A model generated the notes under the pieces. It was not told the origin of the DNA. It saw only the letters and a list, made by a program, of their open reading frames with translations, and made no database searches. Source: Nanobdellota archaeon (GTDB lineage Archaea; Nanobdellota; Nanobdellia; Woesearchaeales; JAHWHD01). From it: DNA of 40,433 nt. The stretch is from positions 1-40,433 of the forward strand of contig JAYENX010000028.1 in NCBI GenBank assembly GCA_034722435.1, given 5' to 3'. Shown here in pieces: positions 20,278-28,898 of the stretch; position 1 is the first letter of the stretch, and the number at the start of each line of letters is the position of its first letter. The translations under genes and the position numbers were made by a program.

Positions 20278-21423
20278 ATGTTAGATTTAATCTGGTATTT
20301 CTTGCCAATGATTTTGTTTTTAGGAATTATTACTAGTTATCAAGATATTAAAATTGGTAAGATTAAGAATAAATGGGTTTTGTTAGGTTTAGTTTATGCG
20401 TTAGTTGTTAATTTAATTTTGATTTTTTATTTGAATTATACTTCAGGTATAAGGATACATTATGTTTATGAACTTTTTACTAATTTTATTTTTTCAGTTG
20501 TAGTTGGTTTTGGTTTATGGTATTTTGGTGTTTGGAGTGCCGCAGACGGGAAATTGTTTATTGCGTTTTCAGCTTTAGTTCCATTATCGGTGTATGCGCT
20601 TGGTTATCATGAATGGATTCCTTGTTTTACGTTGTTGTTAAACATCTTTTTGTTAAGCTTATTATTTTTGGTTTTGTTGATGTTTAGAAAAACTCAATTA
20701 CATAATTTAAAAAGGGTTGTTCGTTATTTTAAGACTGAATTTTTCAATTTTTACAATCTTTTTGTTTCGATTCTTAGTATTTTCACAATTTCTTGGTTTG
20801 TCCAGATATTGTTTAGATTTGCAGATATTGATGATTACTTGCTTAATTTTTTTTTAGTTATAGTCTTAATGTCTGTACTTAATAAAAAAGGAAGAAAGTT
20901 TCTTTATGTTTCAATACCTGTATTGATAATTAGACTTTTTGTAGATAGGTCAGTATTTAGTTATGAATTTTTGTTACAGTTTATTATTATCATTTTTTTA
21001 TGGAGAATCTTGCAAAGTTTTCTTTCTGGAAGCATCTCTAGGCTTGGGAAAGAGATATTTTCAAATGAGATTAAGCTTAAAGAGTTAAAGCCCGGTATGG
21101 TATTAAGCGATTCCATAATAAAAACTCGTAAATTAACACGGGTGGAGAGGTCTTTGATTGAAAAACAAATGTTAGTTACTGTTAAAAAAAATGATTATCA
21201 TTATATTTTAGGTGGAAAAGGTTCGGATAATGCTTCTAAATTTATTGATCCTGAAGCTGAAGGACTTAGTGAAAAAGAAGTTGAAGAAATAAATGGTCTT
21301 GAATTTGATAAGATTAGAGTTAGTCAAACAATTCCTTTTGCACCTTTGATCTTTTTAGGTGTTTTATTAACTATTTTGCTGAATGGAAATGTTTTAATAT
21401 CAGTAATTCTTGCTTTTTTTTGA
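20278..21423 (+). CDS. A24-family (prepilin/preflagellin type, FlaK/EppA-like) aspartic peptidase with extra TM helices
   Basis: First Asp in TSYQDIKIGKI, second in WSAADGKLF (GxGD variant), C-terminal archaeal peptidase domain ELKPGMVL...EGLS...IPFAPLIFLG; polytopic membrane protein. Confidence 0.8.
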   Translation: MLDLIWYFLPMILFLGIITSYQDIKIGKIKNKWVLLGLVYALVVNLILIFYLNYTSGIRIHYVYELFTNFIFSVVVGFGLWYFGVWSAADGKLFIAFSALVPLSVYALGYHEWIPCFTLLLNIFLLSLLFLVLLMFRKTQLHNLKRVVRYFKTEFFNFYNLFVSILSIFTISWFVQILFRFADIDDYLLNFFLVIVLMSVLNKKGRKFLYVSIPVLIIRLFVDRSVFSYEFLLQFIIIIFLWRILQSFLSGSISRLGKEIFSNEIKLKELKPGMVLSDSIIKTRKLTRVERSLIEKQMLVTVKKNDYHYILGGKGSDNASKFIDPEAEGLSEKEVEEINGLEFDKIRVSQTIPFAPLIFLGVLLTILLNGNVLISVILAFF

Positions 21424-21833
21424 TGGTAGAATTAAGCAATTTAGATATTGACGAGAAAGAAGGCGTTTGTTATATTTCTATAAATCCTAAGATATATCCT
21501 TTGGATGTAATATCTTCAGCAGCTTATGTTTTTTTAGATAGGGCTTATTTAATTTTAGACGGAGATCCTGATAATGAGGTTGTTGTAGAGATGAGATCAA
21601 AATTTGGTGCCGATCTAAAGCAATTAGGTCTTGAATTTAATAATGAACTCTTAAATTATCTAGAATATTCAAAAAGGGCTGAGAAGTCTTTGCCTATAAG
21701 GACTGCCATTATGCAAAGAGCTTTATTAACCAATGATGTTGATAAAGTTGAATCTGAAAATGTCAGTTATCTTGAAGATCCGGAAAATATTGCAGTACTT
21801 TGGGAAGAGAAGCATGAGAAAGATGAATCTTGA
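21423..21833 (+). CDS. hxsD: HxsD-like protein (His-Xaa-Ser system)
   Basis: INPKIYPLDVISSAAYVFLDRAY and EFNNELLNY...IRTAIMQRAL resemble HxsD. ATG overlaps the peptidase stop (TGATG). Confidence 0.8.
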   Translation: MVELSNLDIDEKEGVCYISINPKIYPLDVISSAAYVFLDRAYLILDGDPDNEVVVEMRSKFGADLKQLGLEFNNELLNYLEYSKRAEKSLPIRTAIMQRALLTNDVDKVESENVSYLEDPENIAVLWEEKHEKDES

Positions 21834-22065
21834 AATAAAAAATAGTTCTGTTGTTATTAAATTAAATAAAGTTTTTTATAATTTTGATACTGTGAAGTCT
21901 TCATTAGAAGATTATTCTGAATTAATGGTTGCTGAAGTTAATTATGATGATGTCGATAATATAATACTTGAACTCATACCAAAAAATTTATCCCTTTTAC
22001 CTCAAATTGGTCAAGAGTTCTGTAATTATGTTTTTGCTAAGATGAAGAATCAGCAGTTAATATAA
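21823..22065 (+). CDS. Second, short HxsD-like protein
   Basis: LNKVFYNFDTVKSSLEDY...IGQEFCNYVF parallels the preceding protein. Likely start is 21823 (or 21814) rather than 21733. Confidence 0.65.
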   Translation: MNLEIKNSSVVIKLNKVFYNFDTVKSSLEDYSELMVAEVNYDDVDNIILELIPKNLSLLPQIGQEFCNYVFAKMKNQQLI

Positions 22066-27221: not shown

Positions 27222-28011
27222 ATTCTTCTATGTATGTTTTCCATATCCCTGAACAGTTATATTTTAATTTACAGTGCTCACATTTATTAGTAAATGTTAT
27301 TCTCTTAGGATTTGTTGATAAGTTTTTTAAGAATTTATATTGTTTTTCTTGAAACAAACAAGGTGGAATATGATAAATTTTTATGTTGAATTTATCGGAG
27401 TATTTTTCAATTATAATGTTGATGATATTAATCATTTCGTTATACTTAACACTTAAAATATCAATTTTTTTTTTAGCATTTCCCGTAATGTCTGCAGGAA
27501 AAATTACTACGTTATTTATTGTAGGTATTTCTTTTTCAAATATTTCAAATATTTTTGGAATTTCTTTATAGTTTAATTTATGTAATATGATTCTCACTTC
27601 TACATTTATATTATAATTGAGTGAATTTTTGATACCATTTAATGTTTGTCTAAATGATCCTTTTACTTGTGTAATTCGATCATGAATTGTTTCTGAGCCA
27701 TGTATCTCTGTTATTATTTTAAATATTGAAGATTTGGTAATTTTTTTGACATATTTTTTGTAGAACATCATCCTTCCATTAGTGATTAGTTTGATTTCCG
27801 ATTTAGGACTTACTTTGTGTATATACTCAACAATTTCAAATAAATCTCTTCTTAATGTGGGTTCCCCTCCTGTAATGTAAAAATCTTTATCGTCCATATT
27901 TTTATCTATTAATTTTTTAATATTTTTAATAGGAGGTTCTGGACCTATAGATTTTGGATAAATGCACATTAAGCATCTATTATTGCAATTTCTTCCAATA
28001 TCAATATTCAT
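27187..28011 (-). CDS. Radical SAM protein, HxsC-like
   Basis: CNNRCLMC, ITGGEPTLR, LITNGRM, YHIPPCL, CEHCKLKYNCSGIWKTY. Confidence 0.85.
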   Translation of the reverse strand: MNIDIGRNCNNRCLMCIYPKSIGPEPPIKNIKKLIDKNMDDKDFYITGGEPTLRRDLFEIVEYIHKVSPKSEIKLITNGRMMFYKKYVKKITKSSIFKIITEIHGSETIHDRITQVKGSFRQTLNGIKNSLNYNINVEVRIILHKLNYKEIPKIFEIFEKEIPTINNVVIFPADITGNAKKKIDILSVKYNEMINIINIIIEKYSDKFNIKIYHIPPCLFQEKQYKFLKNLSTNPKRITFTNKCEHCKLKYNCSGIWKTYIEEYGDDEFGKIQS

Positions 28012-28898
28012 TTTTTAATGGGGTGAAATTCAGAAATGCCTTTTCTTTCAGGATATTGCTTCCACGGACCCTCACAAATGTTATCGTATTTACATTCTTT
28101 GCAAAAATCAAATTTCATTTTTGCTTCTAGTCTTCCTTGCTTGCTAAAATCAACTTTGCCATAAGATATTGCATTAATTTCGGTATCAGGCATTACGTTT
28201 TCAGATATAGATTCTTGGTAACCTTCGAGTAAACAATATGGAATTCCTTCGATCATGGCAGGTATACCTGAATTTTTACCTATATTTACACCTTTTTTAA
28301 TATATTTTGCAGCTTCAGATATGTTTGGAACTATTTCGTTAAAGTTTTTTTCAGCGTTACCTAATGCGTGCACAAAAGCGAATTGGAATTGGTCGACTTT
28401 GAGTTCAATAAATATTTTTGCGAGTTCTGGTAAATTTTTGTAATTTTCTTTTACAACAACTGTGTTTGTGATTACGTTTTGATTGAGTTTTTTTAGATTT
28501 TTTATACCTTTTACAACTTGATTAAAAGCCCCTTTTGCATTTGTAAGTTTATCATGTATTTTTGAATTATGTCCGTGTAATGCTAATGCAAATACATTCG
28601 CTCCTGCTTTAATCATTTTTTTACAGAAATCTTCATAACAAAACATTCTTCCATTAGTTTGTATTTGTATTACTTTGTATTTAAGTTCTTTTGCATAAGA
28701 CACAATCTCAAGAATGTCTTTTCTAATCGTCACTTCGCCACCAGTAAAAACAACTTCGTCACATGTTTTTTTTGATTCTTTTAGACAATTTTTAATTTCT
28801 TCAGTTGTTCTTGTACCTAATTTTCTTTCGTGTGCAACAACACAAAATTTGCAATTATTATTACAACTGAATCCGCATTTAAGGTCTACTCTTTTCAT
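28008..28898 (-). CDS. Radical SAM protein, HxsC-like (paralog)
   Basis: CNNNCKFC, FTGGEVTIR, IQTNGRMF, GIPYCLL, CKECKYDNICEGPWKQY; ATGA-coupled to the next rSAM gene. Confidence 0.85.
   Translation of the reverse strand: MKRVDLKCGFSCNNNCKFCVVAHERKLGTRTTEEIKNCLKESKKTCDEVVFTGGEVTIRKDILEIVSYAKELKYKVIQIQTNGRMFCYEDFCKKMIKAGANVFALALHGHNSKIHDKLTNAKGAFNQVVKGIKNLKKLNQNVITNTVVVKENYKNLPELAKIFIELKVDQFQFAFVHALGNAEKNFNEIVPNISEAAKYIKKGVNIGKNSGIPAMIEGIPYCLLEGYQESISENVMPDTEINAISYGKVDFSKQGRLEAKMKFDFCKECKYDNICEGPWKQYPERKGISEFHPIKK

Follow-up and report, generated by a model that had tools for sequence, protein, structure and literature searches.

A ten-gene woesearchaeal locus of the expanded His-Xaa-Ser type and a proposed maturation course for its precursor peptide

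Genes of the locus and their families

The window analysed here is a 40,433-nt contig stretch from an archaeon of the Nanobdellota (order Woesearchaeales), and the block under study, at positions 20278-28898, holds ten open reading frames (ORFs) that resemble the components of His-Xaa-Ser (HXS, or Hxs) peptide systems. Seven genes on the plus strand are followed by three on the minus strand, the two runs being convergent, and all ten ORFs named in a preliminary description of this DNA were found at the same positions in the ORF list and its translations. In our reading the block is probably a single ten-gene accessory module that represents, in the Woesearchaeota (DPANN), the expanded His-Xaa-Ser systems of the HxsA3/A4 type, and for which a course of precursor maturation can be proposed.

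The plus-strand run has the order peptidase-HxsD1-HxsD2-Cys-rich protein-HxsB-precursor-fusion, with neighbouring genes overlapping or lying 1-41 bases apart. It opens with a paralog of the A24-like membrane aspartyl peptidases, a candidate leader peptidase of 381 aa (20278-21423), whose TGA stop codon overlaps the ATG of the first HxsD-like gene as TGATG (HxsD1, 136 aa, 21423-21833). The start of the second HxsD-like gene, likely the ATG at 21814, overlaps in turn the end of hxsD1 (HxsD2, about 83 aa, about 21814-22065). Further downstream are a 270-aa Cys-rich protein anchored by an N-terminal membrane helix (22107-22919), the radical SAM/SPASM maturase HxsB (459 aa, 22921-24300), a 104-aa precursor of the HxsA3 type with a conserved leader, a short hydrophobic segment and a His-rich core (24305-24619), and a 585-aa fusion of an APH-fold kinase domain (residues 1-238) to a radical SAM/SPASM-type maturase (24626-26383). 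The minus-strand genes overlap one another and encode, in their direction of reading, two HxsC-like radical SAM proteins (HxsC_b, 296 aa, 28898-28008; HxsC_a, 274 aa, 28011-27187) and a 282-aa DUF483-like protein (27221-26373); the end of this run reaches 11 bases into the end of the plus run.

Searches with Pfam and NCBIfam profiles, scored in bits against the curated or trusted cut-offs, identified HxsB as a true equivalog (TIGR03978, 452 bits versus a cut-off of 370). It is the sole gene of its kind in the genome, and its nearest homologs in public genomes occur in metagenome-assembled genomes of Woesearchaeota and Nanoarchaeota, those of Woesearchaeota being 55-60% identical. The remaining Hxs genes scored lower: HxsD1 reached 38.6 bits versus 50 for TIGR03976, HxsD2 36 versus 41 for HxsD_rel (NF038315, with the whole model covered), the precursor 34 versus 65 for HxsA3 (NF038309) and 19.8 versus 121.65 for HxsA (TIGR03979), HxsC_a 171.2 versus 267.9 for HxsC (TIGR03977), and HxsC_b 172 versus 500 for HxsC4 (NF038332) and 116.8 versus 267.9 for HxsC. 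Because the named family still gives the best score in each case, we regard these genes as divergent relatives. The expanded type is already catalogued, in that HxsA3, HxsA4, HxsC4 and HxsD_rel have NCBIfam models; these are the top families for the precursor, HxsC_b and HxsD2, although all matches lie below the curated cut-offs. A literature search returned no paper on the HxsA3/A4-type variants, their A24-like peptidase, the DUF483 protein or the kinase fusion.

Outside the Hxs families, the peptidase scored above the cut-off for Arc_PepC (PF06819, the C-terminal domain; 27.4 bits versus 23.4) and below that for Peptidase_A24 (PF01478; 17.1 versus 26.5), and the DUF483-like protein exceeded its own (PF04467; 31.4 versus 25). 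The fusion fell just short for APH (22.7 versus 23.2) and passed for Radical_SAM (51.6 versus 29.5); over residues 242-551 it gave 113 bits versus a cut-off of 340 for a PapB-like SPASM model, its radical SAM part being closest to maturases of the PapB/SCIFF type. A CxxxCxxC radical SAM motif is visible in four translations, and PF04055 was above cut-off in four proteins. The Pfam scan reported the SPASM domain PF13186 for none of the four radical SAM proteins, and their auxiliary clusters are inferred from Cys patterns and from the PapB/SCIFF matches. The preliminary description had proposed an elaborated Hxs-type locus with four radical SAM domains, a kinase-fold domain and a dedicated A24-type peptidase, a view that the family scores support. 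As for the individual families it had named, HxsB and DUF483 were confirmed above cut-off and the other Hxs parts matched Hxs families best from below it; the A24 and APH assignments likewise stayed under their thresholds and the SPASM domain did not appear, the peptidase being recognised through Arc_PepC instead.

Partners of HxsD1 in other loci are 40-57% identical to it, and its AlphaFold2 (AF2) model, with a predicted local distance difference test score (pLDDT) of 87, is an alpha/beta sandwich with a long helix. HxsD1 could not be assigned as a leader-binding domain of the RRE type, as the best PDB match (Z 7.0) lies among many generic alpha/beta sandwiches of which none stands out. HxsC_a has orthologs of 34-43% identity in three other loci (L049, L058 and L130); HxsC_b is 60% identical to its L058 ortholog, which has the same position beside a PP-loop gene, and 45% identical to a homolog in Omnitrophota.

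In the kinase domain of the fusion, the catalytic loop HGDLNIGN (HGDxxxxN) and the metal-binding Asp of the FID motif are intact, and comparison with APH families gave an Atlas feature score of 0.95 and a structural TM score of about 0.7 over 210 aa. An exhaustive HMMER search of 1.84 billion representatives returned three proteins at E <= 0.001, namely the query itself, P0002 (615 aa) and P0132 (567 aa), the latter two with the same motifs. A word-based region search retrieved the query itself only, and with this query phmmer found no kinase domain in the 80 HxsB loci surveyed below, nor was one detected in the Omnitrophota locus. The contig of P0002 also encodes an Arc_PepC protein, an HxsD, a 470-aa radical SAM protein, a 96-aa ORF and five further radical SAM genes. 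P0132 is flanked by an HxsC_a ortholog and an HxsC_b-like gene (locus L130), and its contig, beside p30, carries in addition an ortholog of the Cys-rich membrane protein, a precursor and a 60%-identical HxsB. Given these neighbours, all three kinase-radical SAM fusions lie in Hxs loci.

Kinases of the APH type also stand beside peptide-modifying enzymes in class V lanthipeptide and thioamitide pathways, as the APH-fold kinase does here. Compared with such pathways for ribosomally synthesized and post-translationally modified peptides (RiPPs), the block has no lyase or cyclase partner. HxsB and the C-terminal part of the fusion score next-best to the PapB and SCIFF maturases, a likeness to PapB, the SCIFF maturase and CteB; the substrate here, however, is rich in His and not in Cys, and a kinase-radical SAM fusion was not found outside the three Hxs loci.

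The DUF483-like protein carries the pattern GYPxCC ... HFPCSxxC, in which C117, C118, C169 and C173 of the GYPxCC and PCSxxC motifs are invariant and H166 nearly invariant. Foldseek comparison of its AF2 model (pLDDT 89.8) with the PDB returned nothing at E <= 0.001; VIA-align found likenesses for the N-terminal half only, to 2guk (Z 11.0) and to NleE, a Cys-methyltransferase (Z 8.8), which we take as a lead only and not as an assignment of function. Homologs are rare in protein databases, the closer ones that were looked up all adjoin HxsC-like radical SAM genes of ~300 aa, and within Hxs loci DUF483 genes always lie among such genes. The family as a whole is not specific to Hxs, because both a distant member (P0130) and a second paralog of the same genome, a 219-aa protein at a contig start (G000:C47:43-702, plus strand; GYPLCC ... 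HFPCSFQC), are without radical SAM neighbours. For the Cys-rich protein there was no Pfam or NCBIfam match, and in the Atlas it joined unnamed Nanobdellota clusters only, with a weak TPR-like resemblance (TM <=0.35); relatives occur in 5 of the 80 Hxs loci and in L130, beside the third kinase-radical SAM fusion.

The block in related genomes

The window is archaeal, carrying an MCM gene with an archaeal winged helix and the RNase P p30 gene, and the source assembly comprises 1.30 Mb at 94.5% completeness. The G+C content is 26-28% across the block, 33-37% in the surface-protein operon upstream and 27-30% downstream (window 20001-30000), a mild difference that we do not read as a sign of transfer. 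Two unpublished genomes, one from the same genus (G001) and one from the same family (G002), lack the whole block 20278-28898 between up690 and p30 and retain intact flanks, with the gene order PP-loop, p30, about 1 kb, up690, up747, up1044; it is to these two genomes that our statement of absence as a unit refers. Among 40 relatives from the order, HxsB (36-45% identity) was found in 10, the A24-like paralog in 10 and both in 8, such that the paralog accompanies 8/10 HxsB-positive versus 2/30 HxsB-negative genomes. The two HxsB-negative carriers are G020, where a peptidase-HxsD pair lies at a contig end, and G017, which is described below.

A wider survey, in which species-representative genomes were scanned with an alignment of HxsB proteins, yielded more than 435 relatives, of which the best 80 (45 archaeal and 35 bacterial) were kept, their loci being subjected to ORF calling and to searches with iterated profiles. 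The bacterial loci belong to Elusimicrobia, the candidate phyla radiation (CPR)/Patescibacteria, Myxococcota, Bdellovibrio, Planctomycetia and others. Counts were taken from the loci with at least 3 kb on each side (23 archaeal, 22 bacterial), and the peptidase was counted within 10 kb of HxsB in the archaeal ones. An A24-like peptidase occurs in 22/23 archaeal and 4/22 bacterial loci, HxsD in 20/23 (mean of 2 copies) and 17/22, a precursor in 20/23 and 13/22, HxsC-like radical SAM genes in 17/23 (mean of 2.8 copies) and 20/22, and DUF483 in 5/23 and 7/22, respectively. A second small D gene, as in the window, is therefore usual, and in 28 of 41 loci the A24-like gene stands immediately before D(D)B.

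The arrangement is not due to chance, since this gene set is met again in dozens of further genomes, and expanded Hxs loci of this kind are widespread among DPANN archaea and CPR bacteria. The preliminary description had seen in the locus a surprising investment in secondary metabolism by a small-genome archaeon, which does not fit a layout that the 80-locus survey found to be routine in DPANN archaea and to occur in CPR and other bacteria. The test that it had proposed, whether the peptidase, HxsC-like, DUF483 and kinase-radical SAM genes accompany hxsB and the precursor elsewhere was answered in the affirmative for all four.

The membership of the minus-strand trio deserves separate consideration, for the two HxsC-like genes and the DUF483 gene might form another system that merely abuts the Hxs operon. 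They lie on the opposite strand, and DUF483 genes can do without radical SAM neighbours, as the distant members and the second paralog of this genome illustrate. We nevertheless consider a separate system very unlikely, given that the trio was lost along with the plus run in G001 and G002, that L049 and L058 are laid out in the same convergent manner and contain orthologs (34-60% identity) of both HxsC-like genes, that HxsC-like and DUF483 genes share a strand within Hxs operons of Omnitrophota and CPR bacteria, and that the best family matches of the two radical SAM proteins are HxsC and HxsC4. The Omnitrophota operon, reached via a DUF483-like homolog, runs on a single strand as HxsD-HxsD-HxsB-x-HxsA followed by many radical SAM genes, DUF483, an A24-like gene and a further radical SAM gene.

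In several families of the order, the Hxs core is found at one and the same chromosomal position, with the surface operon on one side and the p30/PP-loop genes on the other. For this reason a recent horizontal insertion was rejected, and old vertical inheritance with repeated loss would seem to fit better.

Two side observations concern the gene content of the surveyed loci. In a giant Hxs operon of Omnitrophota (L040, G041:C2), a 318-aa protein without a Pfam match (3574-4530, minus strand) resembles, by eye only, the C-terminal half of a 625-aa HxsC-like fusion (5577-7454, minus strand), a half that is likewise without a Pfam match. Radical SAM proteins of the B12-binding type occur inside 20 of the 80 HxsB loci (among L049-L128), some of them fused to methyltransferases; an 1127-aa protein of L076 (2445-5828, minus strand) combines two B12-radical SAM modules with a class I methyltransferase domain.

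The A24-like peptidase and proposed processing of the precursor

The paralog profile of the peptidase matches the preflagellin peptidase FlaK (PDB 3S0X, E 1.8e-5) with both catalytic Asp residues aligned (D23 and D90). A profile was needed, as the single sequence gave chance Fab matches only when compared with the PDB. Across 43 paralog sequences D90 is invariant and D23 nearly invariant. A second, canonical A24 peptidase is encoded on another contig of the same genome, which argues that the copy in the locus is an extra, specialised one.

The precursor is the sole one of its type in its genome, and no Pfam domain was matched in its 104 aa. Among 34 aligned relatives, 31 match HxsA3 and 19 match HxsA4. 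In their leaders P5, F14, E18, G20, I22 and K24 are invariant or nearly so, and a nearly invariant G31 immediately precedes a hydrophobic run of 11-15 residues, after which come a variable linker, an HxN motif, a THxH motif and HxS repeats, with H84 invariant or nearly so and H89 nearly invariant. The precursor of the window has HAS and HGS triplets together with HxN, HxT and HxH triplets, and few exact HxS.

This combination is akin to the processing of type IV prepilins by A24 peptidases, of Flp pilins by TadV and of archaeal class III signals by FlaK (3S0X), in which a polytopic aspartyl protease with two catalytic Asp residues acts; the precursor may likewise be read as a charged leader ending in Gly and then a hydrophobic stretch, and its leader motif FL..EEG may resemble that of Flp leaders. 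Judged from these features, G31 and the hydrophobic run are what an A24 enzyme would be expected to cut. Unlike prepilin leaders, the leader here is long (30 aa) and highly conserved, as RiPP leaders are; the hydrophobic stretch is shorter than that of pilins, and the block contains no pilus assembly genes. Prediction of a complex between the peptidase and residues 1-60 of the precursor lends weak support, scoring 0.50 as compared with 0.00 for the best control, with at least 80% of contacts agreeing between runs and a partner pLDDT of at least 60. In the calibration, 58 of 80 solved complexes attained the mark, as did 2 of 110 mismatched pairs; at <=0.60, just 7 of the 80 complexes attained it, plus both mismatches.

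The strongest argument for the roles of HxsD and the peptidase comes from G017, which has no HxsB and carries three A24-like copies, each 2-3 kb from a protein in which an N-terminal HxsD-like domain is fused to the same leader (EE(K/R)G(K/N)ISK ... IGA and a hydrophobic run) and to a Cys/Gly-rich core. The three loci are L041 (G017:C6:3000-22999, at 8005-13642), L042 (G017:C6:18000-30000, at 2223-9067) and L046 (G017:C23:20000-36000, at 7701-12559). Each fusion gene divergently adjoins a conserved gene of 430-440 aa, recognised by Pfam as a YcaO cyclodehydratase in L041 (235 bits); L042 and L046 add a gene of ~254 aa, which Pfam places in the nitroreductase family in L042, and TPR proteins are encoded nearby. 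From their genes these loci look like an azoline-type peptide cluster that re-uses the Hxs leader cassette, so that the peptidase and HxsD would follow the leader and not the radical SAM chemistry. On this evidence HxsD probably engages the leader, and the A24-like enzyme is probably the leader peptidase. One fusion copy in L042, of 396 aa (5260-6450, minus strand), bears an extra C-terminal Hint/intein-like domain (PF01079, 30.4 bits).

The maturation course that we propose is inferred in all its steps. The 104-aa precursor would be made with a leader of ~30 residues (PKIK.KV..FL..EEGKISK), a hydrophobic segment of 11-15 residues and a C-terminal His-rich core that reads HxN and then THxH and HxS/HxT triplets. 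The two HxsD-like proteins would hold the leader or the maturases, while the core would be modified in the cytoplasm by HxsB, the two HxsC-like enzymes and the SPASM-type radical SAM part of the fusion. The fused kinase domain may phosphorylate a Ser/Thr hydroxyl of the core, or prime the core in another manner. The A24-like membrane protease would then take off the leader at a conserved Gly, for which we favour G31, with G20 in the EEG motif as the alternative, and the modified His-rich tail would come to lie outside the cell or remain anchored to the membrane.

Two other roles for the peptidase, or for the cleavage of its presumed substrate, were weighed. The A24-like gene could be a general prepilin peptidase for the divergent surface-protein operon (12269-20202), its adjacency to Hxs genes being conserved synteny only: in several genomes it divergently adjoins homologs of up747/up1044, and up1044 begins with a class III-like signal (KKS↓QITMF). 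We rejected this role as highly improbable, since G001 and G002 retain the surface operon without an A24-like gene; moreover, up1044 is present in 34 of 41 genomes versus 11 for the A24-like paralog, the genome encodes a canonical A24 peptidase at another site, and the paralog lies inside Hxs operons of bacteria that do not have that surface operon. The precursor, for its part, can also be read as carrying a Sec signal, because its hydrophobic run is short and AxA-like sites follow it. In that case it would leave the cell through Sec, with signal peptidase I cleaving after the AxA-like site (AKA↓D), and the A24-like protein would cut at G20 or act as a non-proteolytic scaffold. Small-x-small sites follow the run in most relatives, bacterial HxsA bears a Sec-like signal, and the A24-like gene is missing from most bacterial loci with this leader. 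However, the gene is present in nearly all archaeal loci and its translation is coupled to that of hxsD, the paralogs conserve both catalytic Asp residues, the nearly invariant G31 immediately precedes the hydrophobic run, and the peptidase accompanies the leader into the YcaO loci; we therefore consider processing by signal peptidase I unlikely and prefer cleavage by the A24-like enzyme.

As regards up1044 itself, this giant surface protein of 1044 aa (window 12269-15403, minus strand) starts with MKPKKS↓QITMF, and the genomes of the order that carry it, the window's own included, do so with or without Hxs. Its presence in so many of them indicates that it is not part of the Hxs system, and it is probably cut by the canonical A24 peptidase.

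Relation to bacterial HXS and the possible role of the product

The four-gene bacterial HXS is an antiphage system that blocks the entry of phage DNA (Li et al., Nat Commun 2026, PMC13128918). In this system, HxsB, HxsC and HxsD are all required for a non-canonical N-terminal cleavage of HxsA as well as for a +8 Da change on its SHRSS motif, and the mature HxsA, attached to peptidoglycan in the periplasm, keeps phage DNA from entering; the study resolved neither the protease nor the radical chemistry, and 99.7% of the bacterial HXS systems counted were in Pseudomonadota (PMC13128918). The statement in the preliminary description that the chemistry and product of Hxs systems are not established is therefore outdated.

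The locus in the window shares with canonical HXS (HxsD-HxsB-HxsC-HxsA, TIGR03976-03979) a true HxsB with HxsD-, HxsC- and HxsA-like partners, and also, as far as its genes indicate, a putative His-triplet substrate whose N-terminal export signal would be cleaved off during a maturation that depends on radical SAM enzymes. Canonical HXS is a single-strand set of four genes in the order D-B-C-A; the locus has ten on two strands with the C genes on the other strand, and includes two HxsD, two short HxsC-like radical SAM proteins, the kinase-fused SPASM radical SAM protein, DUF483, the Cys-rich membrane protein and the A24-like peptidase. What appears distinctive, from the sequence, is the candidate dedicated leader peptidase, the very rare kinase-radical SAM fusion and the hint of a portable leader/HxsD/peptidase cassette.

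If bacterial HXS is a guide, the product may act at the envelope to hinder the entry of viral genomes; it may be an effector of defence and not a metabolite of the classical RiPP kind. Of our whole proposal this role is the least secure, and we put it forward tentatively. Several points weigh against it or against the wider assignment. Canonical HxsA has a peptidoglycan-binding domain that the 104-aa precursor does not have, and these archaea have no bacterial-type periplasm, which makes the antiviral analogy a loose one. The block sits in a stable chromosomal slot amid housekeeping genes, outside any defence island. In this locus the HxsC, HxsD and HxsA models all remain under their trusted cut-offs, and the precursor ends in GGAS, without the C-terminal aromatic residue (W/Y/F) of most of its 34 relatives. 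To these are added the short hydrophobic segment with AxA-like sites after it and the bacterial loci with the same leader, most of which do not have the A24-like gene (present in 4 of 22). The precursor of L130, beside the third kinase fusion, ends in SHGSHGHGFLG; from these two endings, the kinase-bearing sub-branch may have a core ending of its own. PADLOC 2023, which holds no HXS model, gave just partial generic radical SAM matches to pVip models and speaks neither for nor against defence.

The same machinery could instead make a secreted RiPP-type product, such as a His-rich peptide that binds metals or resembles a metallophore, an antimicrobial, or a signal between host and symbiont. The His-rich core with (HxS)n repeats would suit such a product, as would the many and variable tailoring enzymes that are typical of RiPP clusters (HxsC-like paralogs, the B12-radical SAM/methyltransferase proteins of 20/80 loci and the kinase), the use of the same leader cassette with YcaO chemistry in G017, the chromosomal stability of the locus away from defence islands, and host lineages that are episymbionts or predators. 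Against this stand the sole experimental datum for any Hxs system, which is antiphage defence (PMC13128918), and the block itself, in which no transporter or immunity gene was evident by Pfam/NCBIfam and no metal-related gene is present. On balance we regard a secreted product as somewhat unlikely.

A broader and rather doubtful extension of our proposal is that of a portable cassette for processing and export, made up of the leader, the HxsD domain and the A24-like peptidase, which DPANN archaea and some bacteria would couple in different loci to radical SAM enzymes and a His-rich core, to YcaO and a Cys-rich core (G017), or, in a rare sub-branch, to kinase-primed radical SAM chemistry. Its products would be cut in the manner of type IV prepilins and displayed on the surface as an antiviral or host-contact envelope layer, and the A24-like enzyme would be the counterpart of the bacterial HXS protease. 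If such a general module exists, a search for the leader could reveal precursors that undergo unrelated chemistries.

For the question of the bacterial HXS protease, the archaeal and CPR variants provide a genetically linked candidate. Their shorter substrates (about 75-135 aa) may lend themselves better to expression than bacterial HxsA, which is insoluble, and the natural series of loci with one to more than 10 radical SAM enzymes could allow the chemistry to be dissected stepwise. The kinase-radical SAM fusion, if active, would add phosphorylation to Hxs chemistry. Finally, should the defence role carry over, these loci would represent a common envelope-level antiviral system in DPANN archaea.

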